Source of the DNA: a virus
Lineage: Duplodnaviria > Caudoviricetes
Direction: 5' to 3' (one strand)
Virus record (IMG/VR): IMGVR_UViG_3300037076_000477
Span: 1-31,291 of that record
DNA length: 31,291 nt
Both the position numbers and the translations under genes were made by a program. Below the pieces are notes generated by a model. It ran no database searches, had not been told where the DNA came from, and saw only the letters and a list, made by a program, of their open reading frames with translations. Numbering within the stretch: position 1 is the stretch's first letter; each line of letters begins with the position of its first letter. Shown here piece after piece: positions 2,085-26,847 of this stretch.

Positions 2085-3254
2085 TCACCAAACAAAAGCG
2101 ACCCGGAAGCCGAGGCCGTAGTCCGCACCGCCTCGTACATCGCCGAGGTGCAGGGCACGAAGCCCGGCATAGGCACCATCGCCCCAATTGCCGCCGCGGA
2201 TCGGAATAGCCTCAATACCTGTATTGCTCCAGAAATAATCGTCAAGAACAGATCCGGTTGCGTATAACATTAATGTTTTTAATAATGCCACTCCTGCACA
2301 TGAAGATGAGACACTTGCATCGCAGGTAAAAGATTCAAAAGGATGCGCGTTACTTGTTGCACTTGTAGTATCACTAATCTGGCCAGCAGCATTGACCTTT
2401 AATGTATGCGCAGTACCAGGGGGAACTAAACTACCGTCTTGTAATATTGCTTTCCATAACAAAGAAGAAGAAGAAACATCCGCTAATGGATTGGCCGCGT
2501 CATTGTTGGGAATGATATTGATCTCCCCGTTGTTAAGCCTCATGCCTTTATTCCATTCCCAAACGTTACCATTCAAATCTCTGATACCATAAGCACCATC
2601 ATGCGCAGTTGTAACTCCGCCGGAGCCAGCCAACCACCTTGCAGGCGAAGTGCCATTTACAAAGTTTGCCGAATCTCCCGGTTCCCACATTCCCATAATA
2701 GTCCCAACAGACCAGTCCCGGCCAAAGGCATTGTTACCTTTGACTTCAGTTGATCCCATAATGTTTTTAGATACCAAACAGATGGCCGCCCATTCTGCGT
2801 TGGTTACCATGTGGAATCCGTTTATTGTTGTACCATTATTCAAAGAGTCGCAGGTTGCATTTGCATTATCAAAATTTATCGATTGCGCAACCAAGCCGCT
2901 TGCCTGAGTTACTGCATGCCCGCCTAAATAAGATGCCTCATATTTGCCTATAAAGATTCTTTTCCTTACGCCATTAACTGTAAAGGCAGGATGCAATGAT
3001 GTTGAAGAAAATCCACTTGTCGCGTCCCAATTAAAAGCGGGAATTTCTACCATTTCATGGTAGTTCCCGTTTTTATCATAGATCAACCAATTGTTATGGC
3101 CAAGATTTGTACCGGGGGATGCTTGAACAAATACGGCGCTATCAAGTCTTGCCAAGTGAGCTTGAATAGCATCTATTGCTTCCATCAACTGTGCATTTGC
3201 AAAACCTGATATAAGCAAGATTATAAGTAAAGACATTTTTATAATATTTTTCAT
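2085..3254 (-). CDS. DGR target protein 1, C-type-lectin (FGE-sulfatase-like) fold with N-terminal signal peptide
   Basis: Motifs IGKYEAS, TNAEW, DLNGNVWEW and RGGxW...GFR. VR1 at the C-terminus. N-terminus MKNIIKMSLLIILLISGFANA|Q looks like a Sec/SPI signal. Confidence 0.92.
   Translation of the reverse strand: MKNIIKMSLLIILLISGFANAQLMEAIDAIQAHLARLDSAVFVQASPGTNLGHNNWLIYDKNGNYHEMVEIPAFNWDATSGFSSTSLHPAFTVNGVRKRIFIGKYEASYLGGHAVTQASGLVAQSINFDNANATCDSLNNGTTINGFHMVTNAEWAAICLVSKNIMGSTEVKGNNAFGRDWSVGTIMGMWEPGDSANFVNGTSPARWLAGSGGVTTAHDGAYGIRDLNGNVWEWNKGMRLNNGEINIIPNNDAANPLADVSSSSLLWKAILQDGSLVPPGTAHTLKVNAAGQISDTTSATSNAHPFESFTCDASVSSSCAGVALLKTLMLYATGSVLDDYFWSNTGIEAIPIRGGNWGDGAYAGLRALHLGDVRGGADYGLGFRVAFVW
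2097..2205 (-). repeat. DGR variable repeat VR1
   Basis: Ungapped match to TR over 109 bp with 16 mismatches, all at TR adenines (11 A>G, 3 A>T, 2 A>C). Confidence 0.96.
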
Positions 3255-3255
3255 T

Positions 3256-3738
3256 TTAATTACCTTCCATTTTAATTGTTAATATCGGATTACCTGTGCC
3301 ATATATTTTATAATATAATTTTGTGGTGGGGGGTTTTAACTTTGAGTTCCAAATTTGCCCTGGTAAAAGAATATTCTTATCAGTGGCCGGATAACCACGA
3401 TGTTCGCTATAGCAGATTGTATCATCTGCAGTAATGCTATAACTCCACCAACTTGTAACCGGGGGAGATACCGAATCTCCACCAGCTGATATGGTTGTAT
3501 CATAGCCGCCTGAGTAAGGAGCGAGATTAACTATAGCGTCAATGTAACCGCCGATCACGAAAACATTCTTCCCGGTCCATGCACCCGATGCAGATTTAGT
3601 ATCAGTAGATGCCTTTGAAGAAGATAGACTCTCTATAGGAGTCATTTTTACGAAGGTTGAATCAAAACCATTAATGGTTTGTGCCTGGGTTAAACCACTT
3701 ATAAGTAATAATGGTATTAATAATAAAAGCGTTTTCAT
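3256..3738 (-). CDS. Hypothetical secreted protein
   Basis: Probable start MKTLLLLIPLLLISGLTQA|Q (ORF track starts at 3774). Mature part is S/T/G-rich. Confidence 0.7.
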   Translation of the reverse strand: MKTLLLLIPLLLISGLTQAQTINGFDSTFVKMTPIESLSSSKASTDTKSASGAWTGKNVFVIGGYIDAIVNLAPYSGGYDTTISAGGDSVSPPVTSWWSYSITADDTICYSEHRGYPATDKNILLPGQIWNSKLKPPTTKLYYKIYGTGNPILTIKMEGN

Positions 3739-3754
3739 TTTATTCCTCATGATT

Positions 3755-4024
3755 CTATTTTCCAAAATCTTCATAATTTAATTTTTGTTGAGTGCAAAGG
3801 TTTCGTAGGTTATGCTCCATGCGGTTTAGCTGAAGAGTTTCAGCATCTTTTACAGTTTTTAAGCTTTTAATTTCTTCTTCATTGACGGAAATTCTGAGTG
3901 CATTTGTCCCCCAGGTAACTCCAATAACGAATATAAAAGCTATTATTGTTAGGACCGCCTGGCCAAAGGTTAATACGTTTTTTGTACCTATTGATGTTCT
4001 TTTTTCTTCTGTATATTCTTCCAT
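3755..4024 (-). CDS. Small membrane protein with coiled-coil tail (lysis-associated?)
   Basis: One TM segment followed by a helical charged C-terminus. Located after the lysis genes. Confidence 0.6.
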   Translation of the reverse strand: MEEYTEEKRTSIGTKNVLTFGQAVLTIIAFIFVIGVTWGTNALRISVNEEEIKSLKTVKDAETLQLNRMEHNLRNLCTQQKLNYEDFGK

Positions 4025-4026
4025 TT

Positions 4027-4662
4027 CTATAAGCCTACTTTTAATTTGCCTTCAACTTCTGGAGCTAATGAAACATGTCCATTATCAAAATTTGCATTAC
4101 CCCGGAATTCTAAGGATGTATTAAAGAATAATACTTTTTGATTAAACGTTAATGAAGCAAATGGATAATAATTAAATTTCGATTCCTGGTACCAGGTTTT
4201 AATTCCTATTCCAATTTCCCACTTTGGCAACTCCCGGATCGTTACTGTCTGAGTTTCAGTTACAGTAATAGTCTTTTCTTTTGTAATGGTCCTCTCCGGA
4301 ATTACAAATCGATTTAAGAAGAGATCCTGATTATGATAATAATTTATATGAGCTTCAAATCCATCTGCAGAGGTTGTATCATAATATGATATCTTCTCTA
4401 AAGGACCCTCCCCAGTAGGAGACTGGGGAGAATCTTGAGGATTGACTGAAGCAGGTACCGGAGTGTACCTGGTCTTTGCGGGAGAGATTACCGCAAGCTC
4501 ATGTTTGGCAGTTGAAGTATCGGTTTTTTCTTCTACTTTAACTGCAGTTTGTTTATTTGTAATTTCTGGACATTTATGGAATAAAGAATAGCCGCCGGCT
4601 CCGGCAAGTACTCCTACCAGGAATATTCCAATCAATAAATATTTAGCCATTTTATCAGCCAT
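4027..4662 (-). CDS. Membrane-anchored protein after endolysin, possible spanin-like lysis accessory
   Basis: Probable start MADKMAK with GGAGG upstream (ORF track extends to 4755). N-terminal TM segment and beta-rich C-terminus. Function inferred from position only. Confidence 0.55.
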   Translation of the reverse strand: MADKMAKYLLIGIFLVGVLAGAGGYSLFHKCPEITNKQTAVKVEEKTDTSTAKHELAVISPAKTRYTPVPASVNPQDSPQSPTGEGPLEKISYYDTTSADGFEAHINYYHNQDLFLNRFVIPERTITKEKTITVTETQTVTIRELPKWEIGIGIKTWYQESKFNYYPFASLTFNQKVLFFNTSLEFRGNANFDNGHVSLAPEVEGKLKVGL

Positions 4663-4663
4663 G

Positions 4664-5290
4664 TTAATTCCCTCCAAGATTGTTTGGTAAGTCCTGCACC
4701 GGTGGAAGATTATTATTAAAATCATCAATAATCTGATCCCAGGTTTCAAGATCAATATTTATTAGATCAGCAGCTTCAATCTCTGCCAGCTCTTCAGGCG
4801 TTGGTATTTCATGTGGCAAAGGAGATATCTTTGCAGGATCTGTCTCGAGGAAAATCCTTGCATCAAATTTTCTTCTTTTGGTTAAACCGGATAGTTCTGT
4901 AAGGACTCCATTTACCTTTGCCTTGTTATGTTGTAGTATTGAAACAACCGCTTTATCAAAATCTTTTTTATTTATAAAACTAAGGATTGAGGATTTTTGG
5001 AAGTTTCCGGATCCGATATTGTAAAGTATATCTACACAACTCGACATCTGATGATCATTTATTTCAACCTGCAGCATTTTAGATAATGTCTTTTCATTAC
5101 TTTCAACTTCCTCGTTAAACCATTTTTCAGCCTGATCCTTGGTGCAAGTCATTCCCATGGTAACTATACGTCCATCCGGATGGGTACAGCCATAACCGAT
5201 TGTGGGAATGCCGGCAGGACATAAATAGGCCAGCAGTTTGAGACCTTCAAAGCTTTTTATATAATCACAAACGATGGCAAGAGTTCTCAT
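4664..5290 (-). CDS. Endolysin, GH24 phage lysozyme
   Basis: FEGLKLLAYLCPAGIPTIGYG (E-x8-C-x5-T) and GLTKRR. Acidic C-terminal extension. Confidence 0.92.
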   Translation of the reverse strand: MRTLAIVCDYIKSFEGLKLLAYLCPAGIPTIGYGCTHPDGRIVTMGMTCTKDQAEKWFNEEVESNEKTLSKMLQVEINDHQMSSCVDILYNIGSGNFQKSSILSFINKKDFDKAVVSILQHNKAKVNGVLTELSGLTKRRKFDARIFLETDPAKISPLPHEIPTPEELAEIEAADLINIDLETWDQIIDDFNNNLPPVQDLPNNLGGN

Positions 5291-5589
5291 TATTTCAACT
5301 CTTCCGGTTTACCGGTAATTTTTAATTTTTCCACTTCGCCATTTACCTCTATTGCTTTTTTACCCGTAGATATGCCGGCAAATAGCAACAGATCACTTGA
5401 TATTATAATGAGATATTCCATCAAGTAATTGGGATAAAATCTTAACACGAAAATAAAGCCGAATGTCATTGCGGTTGCAAATAGCAATACGGTATAGGTC
5501 GTTTGTGCTCTCTGCGAGGACGGACTTCCGTTACTCTCCGAGTTTGCTTTTCCCATCCATATCCACATTTTTGTTAAAAAGTTTTTCAT
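5290..5589 (-). CDS. Putative holin
   Basis: 99 aa with two TM segments, immediately upstream of and overlapping the lysozyme gene. Confidence 0.65.
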   Translation of the reverse strand: MKNFLTKMWIWMGKANSESNGSPSSQRAQTTYTVLLFATAMTFGFIFVLRFYPNYLMEYLIIISSDLLLFAGISTGKKAIEVNGEVEKLKITGKPEELK

Positions 5590-6087
5590 CTAATCCACCT
5601 CAATTGTAAAATTCTCTTCCTTTTCCAGGAAGCGGTCAGTTGTGAAATTAATTTTAATAGTAACATGAGCCTCTCCCTGGCCATCAGCCTTATTCATATC
5701 CAATATTCCATGAGATACGGATTCAAAAGGCTCACAATTAAATTTTTCATTAAATTCTTTTTCAATCACTCCCAGGTGAATTTTAACATCCCTGATTCCA
5801 TCAGTGCAGAATTTCCAGGGATCCTTTTTAGCATTGCAGCCAATCTCAATAACTACCTCGAGAGAAGGGCTTTCTCCGTTTTCACTTTCTTCCCGGTTTG
5901 TTGCATCATAATCTTTCACGTTAATTGCCTCAGGTATTTCAGCCTCAAACTTTTCAGTTCTCCAGTGATCTACCAAAGAGCCGATATCGGTCCTATATCC
6001 ATTCAATTTCTTGATGTCTTTTAGTTCTTCAATCAATGAAAGAACTATGGCCTGTTCACGTGTAAGATTTGTTATAGTAGATATCAT
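5590..6087 (-). CDS. Putative tail terminator / tail-completion protein (gpU-like)
   Basis: Acidic 165 aa with an LKDIKKLNGYRTDIG motif typical of tail-completion proteins. Follows the head-closure gene. Confidence 0.55.
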   Translation of the reverse strand: MISTITNLTREQAIVLSLIEELKDIKKLNGYRTDIGSLVDHWRTEKFEAEIPEAINVKDYDATNREESENGESPSLEVVIEIGCNAKKDPWKFCTDGIRDVKIHLGVIEKEFNEKFNCEPFESVSHGILDMNKADGQGEAHVTIKINFTTDRFLEKEENFTIEVD

Positions 6088-6386
6088 GATAAATTAGGTT
6101 TCAGTCTCCAGACGATTATTCCATAATCCGTTCTGTATTTTTCTGAAAGTCTCCAGGTTACATCCCTTAAAACGAGAGTATTATTCTGCAGGGGTTTATA
6201 ACTATCATAATCAGAGGCTTTCATTTCAATAATATTCTTGTAATCTTCGAATCCCATATCAACCATTGTCTGATCTTCATAGTCAGCAAAGTAGTTGATG
6301 ATAATTGAACCGGATTTGGAAGCGGTTGTTAAGACCGCTTCCTCTTCCATTCCTGTATTAAAATTTTCTTGTGAAAAATCTAACAT
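6084..6386 (-). CDS. Putative head-tail joining protein (gpFII-like)
   Basis: 100 aa, beta-rich, in the head-closure position. Confidence 0.5.
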   Translation of the reverse strand: MLDFSQENFNTGMEEEAVLTTASKSGSIIINYFADYEDQTMVDMGFEDYKNIIEMKASDYDSYKPLQNNTLVLRDVTWRLSEKYRTDYGIIVWRLKPNLS

Positions 6387-6874
6387 TAGTGGTTCTTCTT
6401 CCAGAGATATAATCCAAAATCAAAATCAGTCAGTACATTACCTGTGGTCCCAAAACATCGGACTTTGTAATAGGCATAATGCTTCGAATTAAGAGTCAAT
6501 TCTTTATAGATCGTTGTAATTGAACTATCTTTATAAAGCATTGTGTCGACCGTGGTGTAGTGACCATCATAGGTGTTGGATCCTAGCAGCTCTATGCTTA
6601 CTTTCTGATGGGAAGCAGTACCTCCGGACAGCAATCCACTGAATGTGAATCCCGGATTAGTGTCTCTGTCATAATCAGCAAAAAATAAATTTGTACTGAT
6701 TAGGGTGTCTTTAGTACTATCGATAGTACCTGAGAACATAAAAAGTTGTCCTTCAGTCTGAATAGATTTCACACTGGCATTTTTATTCCAGGATGACGTT
6801 TGGGCGTTTACCTGGGGACTTAAGGACAGAGCCAGTAATGAAATGAACAGCAGCACAAACAGATAGAGTTTCAT
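6386..6874 (-). CDS. Hypothetical protein with signal peptide inside the head module
   Basis: N-terminus MKLYLFVLLFISLLALSLSPQVNA|Q. Stop/start overlaps with both neighbours. Confidence 0.7.
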   Translation of the reverse strand: MKLYLFVLLFISLLALSLSPQVNAQTSSWNKNASVKSIQTEGQLFMFSGTIDSTKDTLISTNLFFADYDRDTNPGFTFSGLLSGGTASHQKVSIELLGSNTYDGHYTTVDTMLYKDSSITTIYKELTLNSKHYAYYKVRCFGTTGNVLTDFDFGLYLWKKNH

Positions 6875-7056
6875 TATTCCTTATCTCCTTTTTTAGAGAC
6901 AGAAGGAACAAAGATCTCAGCCTGTTCGTTATGAACAAGAAGATTAGCGTCATGAACAGAAACTCCGTCCAAAGTGCTACCTACTTTACGCTCAGAGCCA
7001 TAAAGCATAACTCTCTTCTTGAACTTCACAGATACGAGTTTTTCTTTGTTAGCCAT
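6874..7056 (-). CDS. Small capsid-associated hypothetical protein
   Basis: 60 aa directly after the major capsid gene, with a GAGG RBS. Confidence 0.6.
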   Translation of the reverse strand: MANKEKLVSVKFKKRVMLYGSERKVGSTLDGVSVHDANLLVHNEQAEIFVPSVSKKGDKE

Positions 7057-7097
7057 TTAGTTTAACCTCTCAGGTTGTTTAGTTAAAGAAATATTTT

Positions 7098-7119
7098 GCC
7101 CGGGATAAAGGCCCCGGGC
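7098..7119. terminator. GC-rich stem-loop after capsid gene (attenuator or mRNA stabiliser)
   Basis: GCCCGGG-N8-CCCGGGC. No immediate U-tract on the minus strand, so it is at most a weak terminator in that direction. Confidence 0.5.
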
Positions 7120-7149
7120 TTTGCCTATATTACTAACAGATCAGAAACA

Positions 7150-9198
7150 TTAAGAGAAATTACTACCGTATACCCAGCTTGAAGGTCTCTTCAAACCATA
7201 ATCCACATCATAGAATGGGATTATTTTAATAGATCCGTCATCGTTTAACCGGTTGATTTGTATTTCGAGTACTCCCCAGTCAGCTAAAATGATTTCAGAA
7301 GGATCACCATGCATAATTGTACTTGCGGGAACGTTCTTTGAACCAAATACCCCATGGCCAGCCATTTCATTTTTATCAATTATCTTTGCAGTCTGGCCAG
7401 CTTCAATTTTCCTTTGTTTTAATTGACCTCTAATAAGCGGAGTCATTATGTAAGGAAGATTATCTGTATTCACATTCAAATCCTCAAGAACTGTTTCAAG
7501 ATCAATTGCAGTTCCAAAGACGAAGTTTGAAATATCAGCCGTATTAACATGATCCTGTACTAAAATTCCCTTAGGTTGATTCCCGTTGCCAGATCCCTGG
7601 ATAACACCGGCATCGATTGTCTGAGATATCTGCATTAAGATATCCATCATTACAATTCCTTCCATTGCGGGTGTAGTCTGTTTAGCAGCTAACCTGGAAT
7701 ATTGAACGATAGCGGAAACTGTATGAGGTGTAAGAGTGAATTTTCCAAAATCTATATTTGATTTTGTAGCAGCTTCATTTTCACCTATCCAGTAAGCAGT
7801 TGAATGAGCTGATTTGCGTGGGAAGTCAACATAACCGACTAATCCAGACAAAAGCATTACATTAAGAGCTTTTCCGAATAAAAGTTTATTATAAAGCAGA
7901 TCAACAAAATTTCCAGCCATCAACTGAGTGGCAACTAAATTGCCAGCAGTTCCTGACATGTTTTCTCCTGAAGCGATTGTGATATCTCTTTTCAGATGAC
8001 CATAATCGATAAAGAAGGAATTATTAGATCTTGTTGGTTGATTAAGATTTTTGGATATCTGTCTTGAAGCATCTATTTCCAGAGCAGCAAGTTTAGGATC
8101 TCCTTCGACCACTGAACGTACCAGGTTCCAGATCGAGTATCCTCTCTTATCTTTATCCGGCATGTCAAGATCTGTTACCGGAGTAGCAACAGTCCTTTCT
8201 CCAGTGGTATTATTCTTAACAATGAATTCATAGAAATCACCAAGGGTTCTACCGTTTTCACAGTAATCCTCAGCGGTTTCTTGTACTTTAGCAACTCTGC
8301 CAACGAATCTCTCTGCAGTTTTCCTTATTTCCGTGCACCTTGCACGGTCTTCCTTCACTAGCTCCTCAGGTGTTTTTTTTACGGGTTCTTCCATTAGGAT
8401 TGGCTCCTTAGTTTTAGTTGTAGAATTTCGTTTATTAATAGGTTCTGAATTTCTTTTCGTTTCTTTTCCACACGAACGACATTGTTCTACCGGATTACAA
8501 TCTTTTCCACAATCCGGGCATGTACCTTCGTCGATATCTCCCTGACTCATTTCGGCCCCACAGCAATCAGAAACCATTCTTGTTTCTTTATGATCGCATT
8601 CAGCTCTTTTATTTAATTTTTCAATTGCCATGGATCTGAATTTTGAATTAGCATCAGCTCCAATTGCAACAGCAGATCCTTCCTTCAGCTCCCAGCGTGA
8701 ACGGATAACAAGATTAAAATTATCACCATAATTATTTGTGAAAGTTCTTCCTGCTATTATTCCTGTTTCATTAGGTCTGATTCTGGCAGTGAATTGAGGG
8801 AATGTTCTGTAACCGGCAGAAGTATCTGTTAAATGTCTTTCCTTAATTTTGGTCCACATATCTTCTTCGATAGAGGATATAAAAGCTTTTCCACCTACTT
8901 CAGCATTGGCCACATTAAGACTACGTATAGAACCTTTAAGATATTCAGTTGTTATTCTTAAATGTGATTCTAATAAGGGGACCTGTTTGCTATCAGGTAG
9001 AATTACATTATCAGGACCACAAAGAAGTATTTCCCTTACTATTTCCCATTCGTCCCAATCTATAACCAGGGACGGATTCTCAGTTGCAATTGAGCAGTCA
9101 ACAGATCTTTCATCCAAATTGATTGAATCAGATCTTAACTGAGTATCGCGAAATGTTAATCCCCTGGATGCTAAAAACTCAAGTTGTTGTTTTTCCAT
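7150..9198 (-). CDS. Prohead protease-major capsid protein fusion (HK97 fold)
   Basis: N-terminal S78-like protease motifs (PLLESH, SAGY, ELKEGSAVAIGAD). C-terminal capsid motifs (AGNLVATQL, AYWIGE, GSGNGNQPKGIL). Confidence 0.9.
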   Translation of the reverse strand: MEKQQLEFLASRGLTFRDTQLRSDSINLDERSVDCSIATENPSLVIDWDEWEIVREILLCGPDNVILPDSKQVPLLESHLRITTEYLKGSIRSLNVANAEVGGKAFISSIEEDMWTKIKERHLTDTSAGYRTFPQFTARIRPNETGIIAGRTFTNNYGDNFNLVIRSRWELKEGSAVAIGADANSKFRSMAIEKLNKRAECDHKETRMVSDCCGAEMSQGDIDEGTCPDCGKDCNPVEQCRSCGKETKRNSEPINKRNSTTKTKEPILMEEPVKKTPEELVKEDRARCTEIRKTAERFVGRVAKVQETAEDYCENGRTLGDFYEFIVKNNTTGERTVATPVTDLDMPDKDKRGYSIWNLVRSVVEGDPKLAALEIDASRQISKNLNQPTRSNNSFFIDYGHLKRDITIASGENMSGTAGNLVATQLMAGNFVDLLYNKLLFGKALNVMLLSGLVGYVDFPRKSAHSTAYWIGENEAATKSNIDFGKFTLTPHTVSAIVQYSRLAAKQTTPAMEGIVMMDILMQISQTIDAGVIQGSGNGNQPKGILVQDHVNTADISNFVFGTAIDLETVLEDLNVNTDNLPYIMTPLIRGQLKQRKIEAGQTAKIIDKNEMAGHGVFGSKNVPASTIMHGDPSEIILADWGVLEIQINRLNDDGSIKIIPFYDVDYGLKRPSSWVYGSNFS

Positions 9199-9210
9199 TA
9201 AAATAAATCC

Positions 9211-17819: not shown

Positions 17820-17881
17820 GTTACCTTGAAATTAAAAAGAATAGAATTCATGTTATTTTCGCAAAAAAGTCGAAAGAGTTT

Positions 17882-17924
17882 GGGCTCGAACCGCACCCAT
17901 TTAAACATACTCCGGGAAGGACCC
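17882..17924 (-). other. Candidate cos site (cosQ plus cosN-like)
   Basis: Minus strand GGGTCCT (identical to lambda cosQ) followed by TCCCGG, then GC-rich GGGTGCGGTTCGAGCCC 19 nt after cosQ. Intergenic and upstream of a lambda-type terminase. Confidence 0.55.
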
Positions 17925-17954
17925 ATTGCCCGTCCCACTATGAGACAGTACTGA

Positions 17955-18581
17955 CTATACTCTTGACAGTTCATGCGCTAACCTTTCATCATATACATTG
18001 TAGAATACATCAGTCATTTCCTTTATTACCATACTGTTGCCTGACTTAGGATCGATAAGTTTGGTAATGTCAACACCAAACATTTCTTTGATCCCTGAAC
18101 CTTTCTCATTAGATTTACGAATGAATACTCCGACATGTCCACTCTTCATAGTCTGGACGAAGGATCCTCTTGATCCATCATTACTCCGATAGACTACTCT
18201 CTTACCTACTTCAACTTCTGCCTTGACACCCCACTTACCGTTCCCTCCAGTCTTTGGGTTCTTCTTCAATCTACCTGACTTAGTATATAATGCAGGTCTA
18301 CCTGCATGACCCATCTGGGTGGCATTGAACTTGTATAAAGCGATATCACCTTTAGTTATCTTGATTGTAACTACTGGGTAGTTCTTATCTGCTTTACGTA
18401 CGATCTTAAACCTTAAGTCAAGATCTTGTTTTCTTATCTTGTACCGCTCTCTGATCAGTGCACTGGCTGCAGTAATGGCAGATGAAGCGGCTCTATTCAT
18501 TGCACTAACACTTGCATTATCAATCTGTTTACCCAGATCTACAAATATCGATTTGTAACCATCCCGGATATTGTTAGACAT
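17955..18581 (-). CDS. Minor tail/tail-completion protein Z-like
   Basis: Basic 208 aa with AMNRAA...IRERYKI and FVQTMKSGHVGVFIRK...IKEMFG. Confidence 0.65.
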   Translation of the reverse strand: MSNNIRDGYKSIFVDLGKQIDNASVSAMNRAASSAITAASALIRERYKIRKQDLDLRFKIVRKADKNYPVVTIKITKGDIALYKFNATQMGHAGRPALYTKSGRLKKNPKTGGNGKWGVKAEVEVGKRVVYRSNDGSRGSFVQTMKSGHVGVFIRKSNEKGSGIKEMFGVDITKLIDPKSGNSMVIKEMTDVFYNVYDERLAHELSRV

Positions 18582-18582
18582 T

Positions 18583-18813: not shown

Positions 18814-18830
18814 AGTGGCTTTCCTTTATA

Positions 18831-19034
18831 TTACTTCCTAAACTTCTTTGCAATCGGGCATGTCGAGAAATGTGTAATATGCCGTGTTGAATCATATAGC
18901 CTTTCCATTCCATTAAGCAGATCTTCTCTCTCTGGAGCTTTCAATGATTCTACATTGATCGGGATAAACTTTCCTTTGGATGTCTTCAGAAAGAAGATCT
19001 CCTGGCCGCATTCACAAGTCTTGTTTCTACTCAC
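18831..19034 (-). CDS. Small zinc-binding hypothetical protein (paralog of neighbour)
   Basis: CECGQEIFF...GKFIPIN...HFSTCP. Confidence 0.7.
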   Translation of the reverse strand: MSRNKTCECGQEIFFLKTSKGKFIPINVESLKAPEREDLLNGMERLYDSTRHITHFSTCPIAKKFRK

Positions 19035-20085
19035 CTATTGCCTCACTCAATTCCTGTTCAAATTCTTTTTTCTTTCGTTTGTATTCCTCTGAGTCTTTGT
19101 CAATTACTGGAATCTTTTTGATAGGCTCTGCAGTGGGTTCATCAAGATATTTATTCTTTCCGCCGGTAATATCGTTAAATGTACCCTTCCACTTGTTAGG
19201 GTTGGTATTACTGGCCATTACCTGTATTTCCTCTTTTTTCTTCAAAGCTTCATCTTTTTCTTTCTTGGTGGCTATATCGCGCTTCATACCCTCAATCGTT
19301 TTGAGCACATAGGCAACAGTGCATTTATCCTGCCTGGTTGCCTGTGCAAAGGCATCCCGGGCAATTCTAAGGTTTTCTGCATTGGTTCTATCCGATTGAT
19401 CCATAACAATCGTTTTCTTGATATCATCCACCAGGGAGAAATGGGGAGTCTTTGAAAAGTAGGTTATGAAAAGCTTTCCGATTTCTGAATCCAGATCCGG
19501 GATTTCTTTCTCAACAGATCCGGGAGGAGCAGGGACCGGTTTCTTTTCTTCTTCTACTGCTACATTAGGTTTGCTATAGGCTATAATAGGTAATGGCTGA
19601 TCATTTTGAGCAATGGATTGATCATTTTGAGCGGCCGGCCGTTCATTTTGATCAGGTAACTCATTTACCTGATCATTTTGAGCGGCTAATTCTTCATCAA
19701 AAAGGCTATTTTGATCATGTGACAAAGTTGGCTGATCATTTTGATCAGGTAATTTATCACCCTCTTCTTTAAGATAATTGATGAATTTTTTACCCATTGT
19801 ATACCATTTTGTAAGATCATTAGCTCTTCTATTGAAGTTACCTGATTCTATCCACCCTTCCTTTTCAAGGTCCACCATCCATCTTCTGATAGAACTTGCA
19901 TTGAGATACGGATAAACTTCTTGTAGAGCGGAACTACTATCATACATCCAGTAATTCCCATCTCTGTAATTTTTCATATTCTGTTGATTATATTCTACAA
20001 AGAATTGAATTCTACCTAAGAGTAGTGATTTTTCGATACCTACTTTACATGCTAATTTCTTTTCGAAAGAATGGTGACTATTCAT
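19027..20085 (-). CDS. Phage replication initiator (replisome organiser)
   Basis: N-terminal winged-helix type domain (DGNYWMYDS...YPYL...IRR...GNFNR...TKWYT) and central QNDQ repeats encoded by DNA iterons. Confidence 0.8.
   Translation of the reverse strand: MNSHHSFEKKLACKVGIEKSLLLGRIQFFVEYNQQNMKNYRDGNYWMYDSSSALQEVYPYLNASSIRRWMVDLEKEGWIESGNFNRRANDLTKWYTMGKKFINYLKEEGDKLPDQNDQPTLSHDQNSLFDEELAAQNDQVNELPDQNERPAAQNDQSIAQNDQPLPIIAYSKPNVAVEEEKKPVPAPPGSVEKEIPDLDSEIGKLFITYFSKTPHFSLVDDIKKTIVMDQSDRTNAENLRIARDAFAQATRQDKCTVAYVLKTIEGMKRDIATKKEKDEALKKKEEIQVMASNTNPNKWKGTFNDITGGKNKYLDEPTAEPIKKIPVIDKDSEEYKRKKKEFEQELSEAIGE
19598..19746. repeat. Iteron array, probable phage replication origin
   Basis: TGATCATTTTGA(G/T)C-type copies at 19598, 19619, 19640 (variant), 19670 and 19733, plus a partial copy near 19708, inside the initiator gene. 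Confidence 0.75.
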
Positions 20086-20090
20086 AATTC

Positions 20091-20858
20091 CTAACTTGAT
20101 TCGTTAATTGCAATTGATTCATCCACTGTATTATCAGCAGCGAGTGCTACTTTATCAGCAGCTTCTTTCTCTTTCAACTTTTCAGCCTCTTCCTTCTGAT
20201 TTTCGATCTCACGGTCTCTTAATTCCCTCATATAGCCTAAGAAAGAAGCATGGCAGATAGTTTGTAATTCATGGTGGAATATTGTGTCTGTAGTAGACAG
20301 CATTTCAGCAAAGAAGGATGTCATTCTTGCAGCAATGGCATCACAGACACTTCTATCCTTCATCCCTGGAGTGGATATAACCTTTGGTTGCATCAAAAGA
20401 GATCTTGCCCAGGTAAATACATCAATATCCGGATGATCTTCTTTCATGAAGCCTTCTTTGAGGTTTAGAATGAAAGAATCAACAGCAACCCGATCTATCA
20501 GGATGTTATATATGATTTGTTGACTGTCAAATCGATAATTACATTCAAATTCAAGTGACCTGGTAAGCAGCGGGAATATCTTTCCTTTAGAAGTTATCAG
20601 CAGCGGGAATATTGATTTCCTCTTTATTTCATTTATAATCTCAAGAACTCCATACTGTCTCAGAGATATTATCTTATTTGTCTCCGGATCTATCTTCTCT
20701 TTGGTCCCATAAAAAGCTTTTTGAAGCTCATAAACTTTATCTTCAATGTTTGAAAGTGTTAAATTCTGTTCAAGTCCCTGTTTTGATATAGCAAGTGTTA
20801 CAGGAGTGAATATAAAATTCAGTAATAATCTTAGTTTTTTTATGATCCAATTTTTCAT
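20091..20858 (-). CDS. Hypothetical protein
   Basis: 255-aa ORF in the early operon. Confidence 0.7.
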   Translation of the reverse strand: MKNWIIKKLRLLLNFIFTPVTLAISKQGLEQNLTLSNIEDKVYELQKAFYGTKEKIDPETNKIISLRQYGVLEIINEIKRKSIFPLLITSKGKIFPLLTRSLEFECNYRFDSQQIIYNILIDRVAVDSFILNLKEGFMKEDHPDIDVFTWARSLLMQPKVISTPGMKDRSVCDAIAARMTSFFAEMLSTTDTIFHHELQTICHASFLGYMRELRDREIENQKEEAEKLKEKEAADKVALAADNTVDESIAINESS

Positions 20859-20872
20859 TTAATGTTTCCTTT

Positions 20873-21151
20873 TTATTTAATTTCTAGATATTCTGGATGG
20901 TTTAATAGATAATCCCTATCTGCCCTCAACAACATCATAAATGATTGACATTCTGCATATATTCTTTGACCGTGAAAATCAGTTCTTGATTTATAAACTT
21001 CCATTGTGTCAATGTATTTGTCACACATTGTATCAATCTGGTTTATTCTTGCAAAGTCATACTGTTTAGGAGAGCATCCTTCGTTTAACAATATTCCTAG
21101 ACATAGCAATAATGCCAATAGCAATGGGAATAGAATTATTTTAGCATTCAT
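20873..21151 (-). CDS. Hypothetical membrane protein or lipoprotein
   Basis: Hydrophobic N-terminus followed by EGC|S. Confidence 0.6.
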   Translation of the reverse strand: MNAKIILFPLLLALLLCLGILLNEGCSPKQYDFARINQIDTMCDKYIDTMEVYKSRTDFHGQRIYAECQSFMMLLRADRDYLLNHPEYLEIK

Positions 21152-21169
21152 TTATTGTTTCCTTTTTAT

Positions 21170-21358
21170 TTAATCAGCAAAATGATTTATAATATCAGAA
21201 CCATTATAGGTCCTGATCTTTTTAAGTTTAATAAGTTTCTTTTCTACCAGGTGATCTAAAATCTTTCCTGCAGCTTCTTCAGTTATTATCTTACCTTCTT
21301 TTGTCTCCAGGTTCTTATCCAGTATCTCCTGAAATTCTTTGATAATTCTAATAGCCAT
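21170..21358 (-). CDS. Hypothetical protein
   Basis: 62 aa, coupled to the upstream gene. Confidence 0.55.
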   Translation of the reverse strand: MAIRIIKEFQEILDKNLETKEGKIITEEAAGKILDHLVEKKLIKLKKIRTYNGSDIINHFAD

Positions 21359-22107
21359 TATTCATCATCCTTTACAGGTCCTTCAAGTTTACAATATTGT
21401 TTAACTACTTTAGGAATTGGAAAATATTTGCCGGTTTCTTTTATATTGGTTAACCAGGCATAAACCTGCAGCTTCTGTTTCTCTGTCCAGCTACTTACTA
21501 TATCATGGGATGGAGTTTCATCAAAGTATTTCTCACAAAGAACGAGTTTTACAATTATTCTGTCTTCAATAGGGACTTTCTTGAGTTCCAGTTCCATCTG
21601 AGCTTTATCTTTTTCTTCCTCAGTTTCAGCCTTAGCTGGCTCCTCAGGGAATAATTCTTCCTGAGCCCGATCTCCATTCAAGTATTTTTCAGCTTCAGTT
21701 ATAAGAGTCTCTAAAGCATCGGCACAATCTTCATCCATTAAAGTCTTAGGGTCTCCCATGTCACCCGGATAATCTGTATTCTTATGAGGAGTATTTAGGA
21801 CCAATGGAGAGTTGGAATGCATTAGCTTCAATATCCCGGATATTACAGCTCCCAGGATATCATCATCACCTGAATAGGTTAAAGTGGCTCCTTTTACGTG
21901 TGATCTTTCAATAATTTCTTTATCAATAGGAATCTCACAGATAAGTAAAAGATGTCTCCTTAAATCCATAAAGGCCTGGATAAATGAAGGAAGTGGATTC
22001 TCGGGACATACCAGGGAAAGGATATCATATTTGTTATCAGCTTTCTTTACCCGGTAATGCAGCTCGATGCCGGTATTTGTTCTTTTGATTTTAGTAAACT
22101 GTACCAT
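21358..22107 (-). CDS. Hypothetical acidic phage protein
   Basis: 249-aa ORF in the early operon. Confidence 0.7.
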   Translation of the reverse strand: MVQFTKIKRTNTGIELHYRVKKADNKYDILSLVCPENPLPSFIQAFMDLRRHLLLICEIPIDKEIIERSHVKGATLTYSGDDDILGAVISGILKLMHSNSPLVLNTPHKNTDYPGDMGDPKTLMDEDCADALETLITEAEKYLNGDRAQEELFPEEPAKAETEEEKDKAQMELELKKVPIEDRIIVKLVLCEKYFDETPSHDIVSSWTEKQKLQVYAWLTNIKETGKYFPIPKVVKQYCKLEGPVKDDE

Positions 22108-22112
22108 GACTA

Positions 22113-22724
22113 TTAACTTCCTTTTAGTGAAAATTCTTTCTTTGCTCTCTCCCAGGCATCATTGATTAAATAGATATAGCCTGAATCATCACCCAGATCG
22201 GGATGATGTTTCTTTGATAATTGTTTCCATGATGCTTCAGCTTCTTCATAAGTGCAGTTCTCTGATAATTCAAGGATCTGCCACCATGCACCATTAGAAG
22301 GACCGGCATTCTCAGCAATAGCAGTGAATCCGGTAAAAGCGCGTTCAAGAAAATCAGAAACTCCATCCCTATCTATTTGCCTTAAAGAGTTAATTGTCCT
22401 TACTATTGCATGTATGTTATCTTGAACTCTCCTGTATTTATCACAGGCCAATACAACATTTTTATCTTTTCTCTTGAAATAGACTGCAACTCCTGGATCA
22501 CCTGGGTTAAATCCGGATCTTGGTCCACCGGCAAGCTTCTGTGGAATATTTGTACTGAGTATGGGATTCTTCGCTCCTAACAAATTAAGTTCGTTCTCCA
22601 GGTTGTCAGCTGCTAAGGCAATCGTCAGATCCCGTGCAAATCTTGAATCTTTCCTGTATTGAGTTCGTTTATATCCCTCCGGCCAGGTTAATGGGCAGGA
22701 AGCAATTGATTCCTGCCTATTCAT
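22113..22724 (-). CDS. Phage protein with C-terminal DnaJ (J) domain
   Basis: PLTWPEG...DPGVAVYF...ACDKY N-terminal domain, then WWQIL...KKHHPDLG...INDAW (HPD motif). Confidence 0.85.
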   Translation of the reverse strand: MNRQESIASCPLTWPEGYKRTQYRKDSRFARDLTIALAADNLENELNLLGAKNPILSTNIPQKLAGGPRSGFNPGDPGVAVYFKRKDKNVVLACDKYRRVQDNIHAIVRTINSLRQIDRDGVSDFLERAFTGFTAIAENAGPSNGAWWQILELSENCTYEEAEASWKQLSKKHHPDLGDDSGYIYLINDAWERAKKEFSLKGS

Positions 22725-24790
22725 TTCTTCACCGCTTTCTTCTTCCCGGAGACTTTCTTCTCTTTAGCCGGTTTATCAGCAGAATAAGCTTTTAATAATT
22801 TTTCTATGGCCTTATCAATTGTCTCCCTGCATCCACCAATATTATCTTTTATATTTTCCACGGGTACAAGAGGTAAATCATCCAAAGAAAATCCATCTAT
22901 GTGGAATTTATCTTTTGCAGTTACTTTTCTGAAACAGATCTGAGCATTACCAAAATTTATGTTATATATTAAATCATGATTGCTAAACCCTACTTCAGGA
23001 TGTTTGGCAATAAGATTTGAAAGATTTATTGCATTCTCACGTTTGCAATAGAGATCATCCCCCAGAGAAAACATGCATTTATTCCGGATATCGGATTCTT
23101 TCTTTCCCAGGTCCGGATCATAGCCGTTATTTTTGAAGAATCCTTTCTTTGTTTTTGCACGTTTGGCATCATATTCAACAGCTACTTCTTTTTTGATTTT
23201 ATCAACATCAATAAGCTTTTTAAGATTATTAAGAAGGATGGTAGTGTTTTCATCTTTCAGGATGCCTTCAATATTCAATCTGGCCTCTGAGAATATGATA
23301 ATTAACCACTGTATCCTTTTAAGGAGATTGATTTCAGTGGTATGGTCAGATACAAAATCAAGGAAGCCAAGTTCAGCATCATCAAGATGATAATCCTGAA
23401 ATTCATAATCATATAATTCCTGAACCTTTTCCATGCTCTGCATCTTTTCATATTTAGTAAGATCTATCTGCAGCACTTCCTTGACTAAATAATCCCTTCT
23501 TGATGATTCCAGCATCATAAAACCACGCATACAGGTTTTAATCAGCAATTCTATATCATTTATAAATATTTCATCATCTTTAACCAGGTTAACGCAGGAT
23601 TGTTTTATGACCTCCATGCACTCAGGTTGACTGATAATCTCAATTCTTCTTTTGTATCTTTCATCCGGGGTAGGTTTATTGCCTCCTGAAGAAGAGGAAT
23701 AATAAGGATGATGAACCTTGCAGCTCTTATCAGTACAGATATCGATTATCTTTCCAGTTTCAGTGCCGTCACAAATAATAGCTTTTTTACTACAATCACA
23801 TTTACTACCAGTCGCTTTTTCATAGTTGTTTTCATAGAGGAGTTCTTTATTATTTCCGGAATAATTTTCACTGACTTTCACCAATTCGATATTATTATCC
23901 TTATATGACTTAATTATATTATTGGCATGTGTAGAAAGCTTTTTCTTGAAGCATTCAGGATCGGTACAGAAATCCTTTTTATCTAATTCCGGGAAGAGAT
24001 ACTTATTATAACCGGTTCTCTTTGAACAATCCGTACAAGCTCCTGCAGCTGGCACCAGGTTAGCATCATCTTTCTTGAAACTGACTTTATGGAGATCCAT
24101 CATTATATTACCTTCAATCCATTGTCTTAATCTTGAAGGTGACTGAATATTATCGTTTGATAAATTACCCCTGTAATCTTTCAATTCATCGAGGGTTTTC
24201 TTTTGGTCTGTGGGTTGAAGCCTGGCAAGTAATATTGCATGACCAAGAATTATAGTGTCTTCATAGAAGAGTTTTTTAATTGGAGCAATAAGATCAAGTA
24301 GTTTTAATCTTTGATAAATATAGAAATCAGATTTACCAAACTTTTGAACCAGAGATTGGATATCATATTTGTTGTTTTTAATTAAGGACTGATACCCATT
24401 TGCTTCATCAAGGGGATGAACATCAGATCTATGGAGATTTTCAATTATCTGGATCTCGAGTACTTCCTGATCGGTTAGCAGCTTTATTACACAAGGCATC
24501 AGCTTTAATTCAGCAACAATAGCAGAACGATATCTTTTACCTCCAACAACTAATTCATAATGCTTCTTTCCTAGCTTTTTCTCTCTGACAGTAACAGGAC
24601 TGATTATTCCAACCTGTTTAATAGAAGAAGCAATTTCATCAACTTCTACCTGGTTAAAATTAGTTCTTGGATTAGATGGTGATGGATAAATATCATCCAT
24701 TGAGATAAGTTTATATTCTCCTTCATCAATTACTCTCGTGACTTCCCCTTTCTTTCCGGTTTTGCTTTTAGTAACCCTTTCTTTCTTCAT
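22721..24790 (-). CDS. ParB/RepB/Spo0J family protein
   Basis: PSPSNPR, SIKQVGIISPVTVR, YELVVGGKRYR and IIENLHRSD, followed by an HTH and Cys clusters. Confidence 0.88.
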   Translation of the reverse strand: MKKERVTKSKTGKKGEVTRVIDEGEYKLISMDDIYPSPSNPRTNFNQVEVDEIASSIKQVGIISPVTVREKKLGKKHYELVVGGKRYRSAIVAELKLMPCVIKLLTDQEVLEIQIIENLHRSDVHPLDEANGYQSLIKNNKYDIQSLVQKFGKSDFYIYQRLKLLDLIAPIKKLFYEDTIILGHAILLARLQPTDQKKTLDELKDYRGNLSNDNIQSPSRLRQWIEGNIMMDLHKVSFKKDDANLVPAAGACTDCSKRTGYNKYLFPELDKKDFCTDPECFKKKLSTHANNIIKSYKDNNIELVKVSENYSGNNKELLYENNYEKATGSKCDCSKKAIICDGTETGKIIDICTDKSCKVHHPYYSSSSGGNKPTPDERYKRRIEIISQPECMEVIKQSCVNLVKDDEIFINDIELLIKTCMRGFMMLESSRRDYLVKEVLQIDLTKYEKMQSMEKVQELYDYEFQDYHLDDAELGFLDFVSDHTTEINLLKRIQWLIIIFSEARLNIEGILKDENTTILLNNLKKLIDVDKIKKEVAVEYDAKRAKTKKGFFKNNGYDPDLGKKESDIRNKCMFSLGDDLYCKRENAINLSNLIAKHPEVGFSNHDLIYNINFGNAQICFRKVTAKDKFHIDGFSLDDLPLVPVENIKDNIGGCRETIDKAIEKLLKAYSADKPAKEKKVSGKKKAVKK

Positions 24791-24821
24791 TGAATCCTCA
24801 TTAAATTGTTTAGAAAACTAG

Positions 24822-24894
24822 TAGCGGAGGCAGGACTTGAACCTACAACCTCCGGGTTATGAGCCCAGCGAGCTGCCATTTGCTCTACTCCGCG
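24822..24894 (-). tRNA. tRNA-Met (CAT), initiator type
   Basis: Sequence CGCGGAGTAGAGCAAATGGCAGCTCGCTGGGCTCATAACCCGGAGGTTGTAGGTTCAAGTCCTGCCTCCGCTA. C1:U72 mismatch, A11:U24, and three G:C pairs in the anticodon stem. CCA not encoded (CTA follows). Confidence 0.93.
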
Positions 24895-24895
24895 T

Positions 24896-25150
24896 TTATG
24901 CATGTACTGGCTCCACTGTACCAGGTTTATTGTCATCAACTTGGTCTTTTAATAGTTTATGGATCTTCTTTCCTTTGAGACTTATTCCATTTAAGTCAGC
25001 TCTCGAGAGAATAGCATCAAGTGTATCTGCAGCATCTGCCAGATTCAGCAGTGCACGTTTCCAATTAGTTTGATTGATTGCCTTGGATAATTCTGTTGCA
25101 TTATCCCGGACGGCCCTGAGTTCTGTTCTATTTAGCTCAAAGGATGTCAT
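24896..25150 (-). CDS. Hypothetical protein
   Basis: 84 aa, coupled to the upstream gene. Ends 1 nt before the tRNA. Confidence 0.6.
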   Translation of the reverse strand: MTSFELNRTELRAVRDNATELSKAINQTNWKRALLNLADAADTLDAILSRADLNGISLKGKKIHKLLKDQVDDNKPGTVEPVHA

Positions 25151-25542
25151 TAGTTTTGTCTGTTAAGAATTATATTCATACCTGAGGTTGATTCTTTTAA
25201 CGGTTCTACCCAATGAACTTTAGTAACTGAATTAATATAATCCCGGTATATCTTTCTTCTTTTTGCATCATCCAATAACCCGGCATTGATCGGGAATTCA
25301 ATTGAGGATATCTTATATAGGCTAGACTTCAGATCCTCATTTTCCATTACCAGGTTATTCTTCTTATTAAGTAACACATTCCACTTTTCCAGCATAACCC
25401 TGATCTTCTTTTCAAGATCCTGATTTTCTTTGAACAGCTTATTATTATTCTGCAGTGAGCCTTTAAGATAACCTGCCTTATAAACTAAATTCATTCCTAG
25501 GGCAAGTAAAGAAGTGACGAAGATAATTCCCATGGTAAACAT
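25150..25542 (-). CDS. Hypothetical membrane-anchored coiled-coil protein
   Basis: N-terminal TM segment plus a heptad-like region. Confidence 0.6.
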   Translation of the reverse strand: MFTMGIIFVTSLLALGMNLVYKAGYLKGSLQNNNKLFKENQDLEKKIRVMLEKWNVLLNKKNNLVMENEDLKSSLYKISSIEFPINAGLLDDAKRRKIYRDYINSVTKVHWVEPLKESTSGMNIILNRQN

Positions 25543-25543
25543 A

Positions 25544-25675
25544 TTATTCCTCTTCAGTATTGGTTAATGAATCATAAATCTTTTTAGTAGTAATCTCTTT
25601 TGCTTTGTGGTAAGTAATTAAATTGGAGAAGAGTAGAAGTCCAAATACTCCCAGGATATATAGTAAGTTTTCCAT
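25544..25675 (-). CDS. Small membrane protein (43 aa), not in ORF track
   Basis: Reads MENLLYILGVFGLLLFSNLITYHKAKEITTKKIYDSLTNTEEE*. GGAG upstream, and it fills the gap up to the next start. Confidence 0.55.
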   Translation of the reverse strand: MENLLYILGVFGLLLFSNLITYHKAKEITTKKIYDSLTNTEEE

Positions 25676-25764
25676 AATGACTCCGTTTGTTTGCAGATTA
25701 AGAAACTTTTAATATTTACCAATCAATAAAATTAAAAACAGAACACCAGAGGACAGTAACCAGA

Positions 25765-26847
25765 TCAAAGAACAAAAGCGACCCGGAAGCCGATGTGGCC
25801 GTTCGCACCTCCTCGTCCACCGTAGAGGTTCAGGGCACGAAGCCCGGCACCGGCACCATCGTTCCAATAGCCGCCGCGGAGCGGAATAGACTCACCATTA
25901 GTATCAAACCAGAAATAATCGTCATGAGGTCCTGTTACCGATGGGAATATGGTCAGCTTCTTTAGTAGTTCAACACCGGCACAATCAGGGGAAACATCAT
26001 CAGCGCATATTGTATCTTTGAAAATGTGGCCGCTCCAGTTTCTTTTGGTAAATTTTGATATTCTTCCTTCATCATCAAATTTCAAAGCGCCTTCCGTACC
26101 TGGTTCTACCAAAGTTCCGTCTTCAAGTATTGCTTTCCATTGTGAACTTGATTTAGAAACATCGATTAAAGAAATAGCGGAGTTATTGTCAGGGATAATG
26201 TTTATTTCGCCGTCATTCAGGCGTAAGCCTTTGACCCATTCCAAAATATTCCCATTCAAATCATATATCCCGGATTCATTTCCGTTGTGCGAAGTTACAA
26301 TTCCTCCAGACCCGGCAAGCCATCTAGCCGGAAAACAATTATCTTTGAATTCTTTTTGATACGGTTCATGCATCCCCATAATAGTTTTAGATGAGAAGTC
26401 TTTACCATAGCGATTATTTCCCTGGACCCTGACTCCATTCATCACCTGATGGGAAATTATGGTAAGAACTGCCCATTCTGTATTTGAAATAAGATGGAAC
26501 CCTGTTATTGAGGATCCGTTATTCAGATCATTGCATGCCTGGTTTGAATTATCGAAGTTGATTGAATGAGCGACCATGCCGTTCTTTTGAATAACATATT
26601 TACCATCAAGAATTGAAGCCTGATATTTTCCAATAAATATTCTTCTTAATTTTCCATCGACAATGAAGGCGGGATGTGGATGAAAAGTATTCCCCATTGC
26701 ACAAAGGAATGTGGGTATTTCCACCATCTCATGTTGATTACCATATTGATCTAGTATCAGGTAATTGTCTTTTAAGCCGTTAACCGGTTTAATGTTTTCT
26801 GGCAATTCAACTTTGCTTGCAGCAGTTCCATTTTGTTCTTCGTTCAT
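25765..26847 (-). CDS. DGR target protein 2 (remote), C-type-lectin/FGE-like fold, no signal peptide
   Basis: Full-length paralog of 2085..3254 (HEMVEIP, HPAF, IFIGKY, WLAGSGG, DLNGN.WEW-like, DDYFW) with VR2 at the C-terminus and a charged N-terminus. Confidence 0.92.
   Translation of the reverse strand: MNEEQNGTAASKVELPENIKPVNGLKDNYLILDQYGNQHEMVEIPTFLCAMGNTFHPHPAFIVDGKLRRIFIGKYQASILDGKYVIQKNGMVAHSINFDNSNQACNDLNNGSSITGFHLISNTEWAVLTIISHQVMNGVRVQGNNRYGKDFSSKTIMGMHEPYQKEFKDNCFPARWLAGSGGIVTSHNGNESGIYDLNGNILEWVKGLRLNDGEINIIPDNNSAISLIDVSKSSSQWKAILEDGTLVEPGTEGALKFDDEGRISKFTKRNWSGHIFKDTICADDVSPDCAGVELLKKLTIFPSVTGPHDDYFWFDTNGESIPLRGGYWNDGAGAGLRALNLYGGRGGANGHIGFRVAFVL
25777..25885 (-). repeat. DGR variable repeat VR2
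   Basis: Ungapped 109-bp match to TR with 15 mismatches: 14 at TR adenines and one synonymous C>A (GGC>GGA at 25810). Confidence 0.95.

Follow-up and report, generated by a model that had tools for sequence, protein, structure and literature searches.

A diversity-generating retroelement (DGR) in a phage provirus, IMG/VR record IMGVR_UViG_3300037076_000477, has rewritten the C-terminal variable repeats (VRs) of two paralogous genes that encode TaqVP-like lectin-fold proteins, with a single reverse transcriptase (RT), accessory protein (Avd) and template repeat (TR). The record analysed was the whole provirus of 31,291 nucleotides (nt), called the window below. One of the two genes (target 1) adjoins the DGR cassette, and the other (target 2) is remote from it, in the early operon. 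The wider claim, that one DGR rewrote both genes, that the adjacent copy is exported by the Sec/signal peptidase I (SPI) route as its N-terminus predicts, and that the remote copy is likely early and cytoplasmic, seems to us, taken as a whole, evenly balanced between right and wrong.

A single template repeat has served two variable repeats

The RT gene (410..1408, minus strand; 332 amino acids [aa]) matched Pfam RVT_1 (E = 1.9e-23) and lies 158 nt from the TR core; all of its NCBIfam matches fell under their cut-offs. The Avd gene (1699..2028, minus strand; 109 aa) matched Pfam bAvd (PF22296; E = 1.8e-29) and NCBIfam NF033474 DivGenRetAVD (119.5 bits against a cut-off of 80). One three-copy repeat family (D1) was found, with every copy on the minus strand (1553-1716, 2084-2247 and 25764-25927). 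The first copy is the full repeat around the TR core (1566..1674, minus strand), which has 109 nt and 27 adenines and in which AAY (Asn) accounts for 11 of 36 codons; a stem-loop (AATTTTAATTTC/GAATTAAAAC) lies downstream of the TR. VR1 (2097..2205, minus strand) and VR2 (25777..25885, minus strand) are 23.7 kb apart. All 16 differences between VR1 and the TR are at TR adenines, as are 14 of the 15 in VR2, where the other is a C>A change, and 21 of the 27 TR adenines are altered in at least one VR. Both VRs have the 3' end GCTTTTGTT, whereas the TR has GCTCTTATT. This resembles the distinction between VR and TR at the IMH (initiation of mutagenic homing) sequence, as defined in the pertinent part of Handa et al. 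(2019, PMC6328139). A T/C-rich TCTG(T) repeat element stands directly past the stop codon of each target (2052..2084 for target 1 and 25734..25764 for target 2, both minus strand).

A longer record of the window phage (G001, 44,977 nt) was compared with another phage (G002; 46,826 nt), which has terminal repeats. At E 1e-5 the two have in common the RT (93% identity), the Avd (92%) and both targets; beyond these, the threshold admitted 75 residues of a protein from the lysis region and, weakly, the tape measure. Their TR cores differ at 7 non-A positions, and at those sites the VRs of G001 carry the base of their own TR in 14 of 14 cases (VR1 7/7, VR2 7/7) and those of G002 in 12 of 14. DNA identity between the phages was 73% and 70% for the target cores and 89.7% for the cassette. 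Since the VRs match the local TR at non-A sites while the target cores are much more diverged, the local TR was copied over the adjacent VR as well as the remote one, at a time when the two TRs had already diverged. The differences at adenines, together with the own-TR bases at non-A sites, indicate that one TR serves both genes, and so bear out the proposal of an earlier reading of the window from its letters alone (the sequence-only reading) that one TR diversifies two genes. The TCTG(T) run follows the stop codon at all four VRs of the two phages (loci L003 and L083 in G002) and is absent after both TRs. No hairpin was predicted at these elements; in this DGR lineage they may constitute a target-site element.

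Comparison of window positions 410-3097 with L003 10119-12811 showed that otherwise unrelated backbones share only the cassette and both target paralogues. The cassette is far more alike than its targets, which suggests a recent exchange of the RT-Avd-TR unit.

VR1 and VR2 were each unchanged between the assembled contigs of two runs, in a comparison that covered contigs of three runs labelled peat metagenome and in which contigs drop rare variants. Ongoing mutagenesis thus has no support from the contigs, and this identity and the single non-A difference in VR2 both count against the wider claim. They would also suit a DGR that is no longer active, the VRs being fossils of past homing in a possibly defective prophage. 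Such a history would likewise fit G001, in which a lectin-tipped tail fibre was not seen downstream of the tape-measure gene and a second integrase-bearing element adjoins the tail end. We regard it as quite improbable, because the RT and Avd frames are intact and 92-93% identical to those of the phage with terminal repeats, and the IMH-like ends and TCTG elements are intact at both VRs. Moreover, contigs lose rare variants, so that identity of the majority sequence says little, and G001 was estimated by CheckV to be 98% complete. The same two runs also contained another variant of the cassette, which showed 30 differences across 295 nt.

Fold and paralogy of the two targets

Target 1 (2085..3254, minus strand; 389 aa) comprises a signal-like helix, a second helix and a core, and matched the TaqVP structure (PDB 5VF4) over residues 57-388 with E = 1.4e-49. 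Target 2 (25765..26847, minus strand; 360 aa) has no predicted signal peptide and matched the same structure with E = 2e-43. Both matched phrog_2889 (E = 8e-69 for target 1 and 3e-75 for target 2), and their identity to each other was 54% over 337 residues. An AlphaFold2 model of target 1, made from a 39-row alignment (pLDDT 88.9, pTM 0.86), has helices at residues 2-16 and 20-40 and, from residue 50 to 389, a well-defined core; the linker (39-49) is poorly placed. On the strength of sequence homology and this model, both targets are homologues of TaqVP and are predicted to have its fold. Comparison with the G002 orthologues gave dN values of 0.215 (target 1) and 0.23 (target 2) with dS saturated; both target cores are under purifying selection.

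A recent duplication was ruled out as the origin of the pair, as the late copies (P0001 and the late copy of G002) and the early copies (P0002 and the early copy of G002) each grouped across phages with support 99. The two targets are, judged from this phylogeny, old paralogues of the TaqVP-like lectin fold.

Target 2 in the early operon and the recurrence of late and early pairs

Phage genes from 28039 leftwards are all on the minus strand. The leftward early operon is headed by an AbrB/MazE-fold gene in a Cro-like position (27833..28039, minus strand; Pfam MazE_antitoxin, E = 8.7e-6), and a CI-like repressor gene with helix-turn-helix (HTH) and peptidase S24 domains (28143..28829, plus strand) is divergent from it. 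The best promoter-like site of the region, TTGACA-16-TATATT at 28086..28059 (11/12 matches), precedes the operon. Target 2 is its fifth gene, between the Cro-like/HTH genes and a ParB-like gene. The genes from 27833-28039 to target 2 abut or overlap, and the target 2 start overlaps the stop of the upstream open reading frame (ORF) as ATGA. Gene position is not equal to expression timing, however, and an early, cytoplasmic target 2 is a prediction from position, a point that has to be set against the wider claim. Two ORFs on the minus strand after target 2 (25544-25675, 43 aa; 25150-25542, 130 aa) have one hydrophobic helix each and are predicted small membrane proteins inside the early operon.

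To follow the remote copy in other phages, the whole records of 35 and then 25 viral contigs with a homologue (60 in total) were searched; the records were loci of at least 25 kb in the first batch and at least 33 kb in the second, from 80 and 90 loci, respectively. Two full-length copies more than 20 kb apart were found in 7 of the 60 records (G001, G002, G010, G029, G049, G059 and G060), including that of the window's phage. In six of the seven, adenines account for all or nearly all of the positions at which the two VRs depart from the TR; the remote VR of G049 is more diverged, with 12 adenine-site differences and others besides. The remote copies of all seven are placed in early or DNA-metabolism modules (lysogeny-switch, replication or methylase), and none in tail modules. 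Their neighbours are an N6-methylase-like gene and a Pol-beta-like nucleotidyltransferase in G002; integrase, S24 repressor and HTH genes on one side and DUF5131, DnaB_2 and SSB genes on the other in G010; two methylases, RecU and a replication protein in G029; SbcC-like, RecT-like and replication-initiation genes in G049; a methyltransferase, a MazG-like gene and SSB in G059; and PAPS reductase, a MazG-like gene, SSB and a resolvase in G060.

A tree was built from 41 rows with the last 50 residues (the VR) cut, and comprised 30 of the 120 database proteins, five other remote copies and six other late copies. The remote copies of G010, G029, G049, G059 and G060 formed one clade (R1, support 99) and those of G001 and G002 another, together with four database proteins (R2, support 100). 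The remote state needs two changes on this tree, the late partners are placed elsewhere, and an earlier 43-row tree gave the same grouping of G001 and G002. By this phylogeny the remote copies form two old clades, kept across phages with different late partners. The two old remote lineages, and the tracking of the local TR by both VRs, argue for a selected, separate function of the remote copy and not for a stray duplicate.

The intact lectin core and VR in both copies are compatible with a different role, in which target 2 would form part of the virion as another receptor-binding tip that is simply encoded away from the tail module, and both copies would serve adsorption like Mtd in BPP-1. 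The available part of the Macadangdang preprint takes the TaqVP-like family to be generally receptor-binding, as a guess, and many cassette-adjacent copies are themselves small free-standing proteins whose core is preceded by about 18 residues, so that a short N-terminus is compatible with a place in the virion. We nevertheless think a virion role unlikely, given that the remote copies occur without exception in early or DNA-metabolism modules, that they have clades of their own apart from the late partners, and that target 2 is translationally coupled to early-operon ORFs. Such copies are also read as non-structural in the relevant passages of Benler et al. (2021, PMC8008677) and Nature 2025 (PMC12629997).

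The predicted signal peptide of target 1

Target 1 begins with MKNIIKMSLLIILLISGFANA↓QLMEAID, which can be divided into n-, h- and c-regions (MKNIIK, MSLLIILLISGF and ANA↓Q). The predicted Sec/SPI signal peptide (3186..3254, minus strand) covers residues 1-21, with cleavage at ANA↓Q and Gln at +1. The criteria were a heuristic of hydropathy and motif scan (positive n-region, hydrophobic h-region, small-x-small and +1 Gln), not a trained predictor. The peak 11-residue Kyte-Doolittle window of target 1 was 2.92, at residue 9. Target 2 begins with MNEEQNGTAASKVELPE; its peak window in the first 40 residues was 0.36, and no 19-residue window anywhere in it exceeded 1.01. It is not extendable upstream, since its ORF begins at the first start codon past a stop. 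The words secreted and cytoplasmic are, for both targets, readings of their N-termini. The n/h/c layout, the hydropathy peak and the modelled helices agree with the signal-peptide-like start and helix that the sequence-only reading had described in target 1, and the low values of target 2 with its description of a protein without a hydrophobic N-terminal stretch.

The ATG of target 1 lies 1 nt past the stop of the upstream ORF, the exact 389-aa product is recorded from two contigs (where the gene calls start at Met1), and the 5' junction is present in contigs of two runs. The upstream ORF (3256..3774, minus strand; 172 aa) has a signal-like N-terminus of its own (TQA↓Q) and is an orphan, with no relative but itself in a collection of 5.8 billion proteins. 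It is one of three other phage ORFs of SPI type with Gln at +1, the others being 6386-6874 (VNA↓Q) and 28865-29167 (TFS↓Q). The sole genome-contig matches of the phage were two short contigs, from metagenome-assembled genomes (MAGs) of Melioribacteraceae and Ignavibacteriales, and from these nearest matches the host clade is likely Melioribacteraceae/Ignavibacteriales. In the passages of Bochtler (2018) on this point, Ignavibacterium album has a Q-value of 77%, the highest outside Bacteroidetes, and Porphyromonas phages have been reported, in the part of the literature available, to obey the same +1 Gln rule. With these nearest matches and the I. album Q-value, ANA with Gln at +1 fits the rule of the host clade. 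On balance we lean towards a functional signal peptide on target 1, a plausible but unique acquisition.

Another contig, present in both runs, matches the window up to 3257, just upstream of the target 1 start, and then continues into unlike sequence. Another genome in the sample may thus share the 5' end of target 1 behind a different upstream gene.

A number of observations count against a working signal. Residues 1-60 of target 1 had no relative among the 5.8 billion proteins, and only five of the best 120 database proteins were signal-like: the window's own, P0005, P0008 and two with RRQLL. In a hydropathy screen, the window's own ORF was the only one among 70 ORFs of viral homologues to show a comparable hydrophobic N-terminus; none did in a second, partly overlapping viral set of 79 or among 78 metagenome ORFs. 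The nearest orthologue of target 1, the late copy of G002, is the C-terminal domain of a 999-aa protein, identified as a tail fibre because its gene follows tape-measure and distal-tail genes, and a relative in an Ignavibacteriales MAG likewise carries a fibre-like N-terminal fusion. Neither the DNA nor the protein is related to the G002 orthologue upstream of about residue 40-53. The in-frame Met24 would yield a signal-less, helix-first protein, as in many relatives, and AT-rich DNA (here 36.9% G+C) readily encodes hydrophobic, Lys/Asn-rich peptides. Benler (2018) describes phage DGR proteins, in the passages concerned, as being without signal peptides.

The pairing itself did not recur either. 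The sequence-only reading had considered that a signal-bearing and a signal-less target could make up one system and had suggested a search for such pairs in homologous prophages. Among the seven two-copy records only the window's late copy was signal-like; in the other six of six phages neither copy carried a signal, giving 0/6 further pairs, and the pairing as a system property is not supported.

Searches for the source of the N-terminus were negative. Against the G002 fibre, 187 of 1000 shuffles scored at least as well as residues 1-23, and residues 24-52 were marginal (16 of 1000), so no significant similarity of the target 1 N-terminus to the linker of that fibre was found. At the DNA level the signal region resembled neither that of the upstream ORF nor that of ORF 6386-6874, and in viral contigs the 48-nt signal-coding stretch was found only in the phage's own record.

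These data could be read to mean that the hydrophobic N-terminus is not a working signal. The lectin domain would have been cut from a tail fibre, its AT-rich new 5' end would mimic a signal, and target 1 would start at Met24 or stay cytoplasmic, perhaps joining the virion or having no function. The orphan N-terminus, the late onset of homology to the G002 fibre, the missing upstream DNA similarity to G002, the signal-less state of all other viral homologues and the statement of Benler (2018) are all in keeping with it. G001 continues past the RT gene, which places the DGR between the lysis genes and the tape-measure gene and not at the end of a tail-fibre module, and this odd position fits as well. 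We hold this explanation to be doubtful, though a serious contender, since the AXA motif with Gln at +1 follows the rule of the host clade and is matched in the three other phage ORFs, the start is tightly coupled to the upstream ORF and used as Met1 by the gene calls on both contigs, and the core is under purifying selection.

Signal-like relatives in the same clade as target 1 are rare, namely P0008 (SFG↓Q) and P0005, and neither was found in viral contigs; that they occur at all counts in favour of the signal. P0033 and P0072 (371 aa, TaqVP-like) begin with MTRRQLL, which is twin-arginine-like, and some members of the TaqVP-like family may accordingly be exported folded.

A possible origin and role of the copy predicted to be exported

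For the reading in which target 1 is exported and target 2 is not, the following course of events can be proposed. The late paralogue would have been a fibre tip in the ancestor; its lectin domain would then have been split from the fibre and have gained the orphan, signal-like N-terminus. Target 1 would now stand alone behind the orphan exported ORF and be cleaved at ANA↓Q, and the mature protein, starting with pyroGlu-LMEAID, would be found in the periplasm or beyond and not in the virion. Target 2 would be a soluble cytoplasmic early protein and would count among the distal, non-structural targets; a role in phage-host conflict has been proposed for these in the literature. That the adjacent target turned from a tail-fibre tip into an exported lectin, so that one template feeds periplasmic or extracellular binders as well as cytoplasmic early ones, is an idea we put forward only tentatively. 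The exported copy might mask or bind envelope structures, either for superinfection exclusion or to shield progeny from debris, and the early copy might engage host factors inside the cell.

Should the signal work, the DGR targets that leave the cytoplasm would include a phage-borne, TaqVP-like one, counter to the generalisation in the available part of Benler (2018). In that case a tail-fibre tip would also prove reusable as a secreted hypervariable binder.

Genome context

The right prophage end carries an integrase gene (30218..31291, plus strand; Pfam Phage_integrase, E = 6.7e-13). To the left of the early operon follow, in order, genes for a ParB-like protein, small and large terminase, portal, a protease-capsid fusion and lysozyme, with the DGR at the left end. 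G001 corresponds to the reverse complement of window positions 1-28039 plus a further 17 kb. Beyond the RT gene it encodes a membrane protein, a pentapeptide-repeat protein, a DUF6734 protein, a 751-aa tape-measure protein and a 523-aa protein, followed by a BNR lipoprotein and then the second integrase-bearing element.

A tail-completion/Neck1 (GpZ-like) gene (17955-18581, minus strand) lies in the middle of the non-structural region, remote from head and tail genes. The pentapeptide-repeat and DUF6734 proteins between the DGR RT and the tape-measure gene (L002:13983-16310, past window position 1) are unusual cargo for a late region. Small genes surround the SPI-type ORF 6386-6874, immediately behind the capsid gene, and ORFs 20873-21151 and 29243-29722 are lipoprotein-like, with a Cys after a hydrophobic stretch. 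The stretch at L112:10947-18282, which adjoins the tail end of the prophage and carries the second integrase gene together with genes for an excisionase-like HTH protein and a 928-aa primase-like protein, is probably another integrated element.

Comparison with known systems

The DGR described here resembles that of BPP-1 in having Avd, TR and RT in a phage and a lectin-fold target with a C-terminal VR. Mtd of BPP-1, in contrast, is a trimeric tail-fibre tip with extra N-terminal domains, the single target of its DGR, and has no signal. Legionella LdtA and Treponema TvpA are exported DGR-target lipoproteins (signal peptidase II [SPII] type, with a lipobox) that are displayed on the cell surface. 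Exported DGR targets at the tips of Bacteroides type V pili, 70% of them prophage-encoded, are described in the part of the Macadangdang preprint available. Target 1 would share with LdtA, TvpA and the pilus tips a DGR-diversified lectin-type domain that is sent over the inner membrane by an N-terminal signal. It differs from LdtA and TvpA in that its signal is of SPI type, without Cys and without a known anchor, and it belongs to a different family.

TaqVP itself (PDB 5VF4), from a Thermus aquaticus prophage, is a homologue of both targets. According to the relevant sections of Handa et al. (2019, PMC6328139) it has a single-domain lectin fold of the FGE (formylglycine-generating enzyme) subtype, with a C-terminal VR and invariant last residues like both targets here. 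It differs from the present pair in being a single, cassette-adjacent target, expressed without a signal and monomeric. Two-target cassettes of another kind appear in the portion of Baykov et al. (2023) consulted.

The sequence-only reading had proposed a two-stage arrangement with an early and a late binder and had called it a candidate for an undescribed system. Its gene layout was upheld in that the remote copy lies in the early operon and such pairs recur in 7 of 60 records, but it had already been published: a structural-side target together with a distal, non-structural one is found in the passages of Wu et al. (2018), Benler et al. (2021) and Nature 2025 discussed here, and the claim of an undescribed system is not supported. 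According to Wu et al. (2018, PMC5758913), phage DGRs frequently combine an adjacent target with a non-adjacent one inside a single prophage; this is a survey statement, given in those passages without module, timing or compartment. The Quimbyvirus DGR (Benler et al., 2021, PMC8008677) has, like the present one, one TR and two lectin-fold targets, one of them by the tail genes. Its second, distal target has methyltransferase and nuclease genes as neighbours, and the relevant part of that paper interprets it as non-structural and linked to phage-host conflict. Quimbyvirus differs from the present phage in its Bacteroides host and frameshifted RT, whereas the two targets here are clear paralogues (54% identity) and the adjacent one has a signal-like N-terminus, a signal being unmentioned in that part of the paper.

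The corresponding passages of Nature 2025 (PMC12629997) describe four species of gut prophage in which a second VR lies far from the RT, close to counter-defence genes. Those phages are from gut Bacteroidota and resemble the seven records with remote copies found here; the passages contain neither a remote-copy phylogeny nor an export signal. A phylogeny of remote copies and VRs that track the local TR were likewise not seen in the passages of Wu et al. (2018) and Benler et al. (2021), nor was such tracking in those of Nature 2025. The late and early pair is thus a known layout, to which the present phage adds a signal-tagged late copy that was seen once, in no other phage examined.

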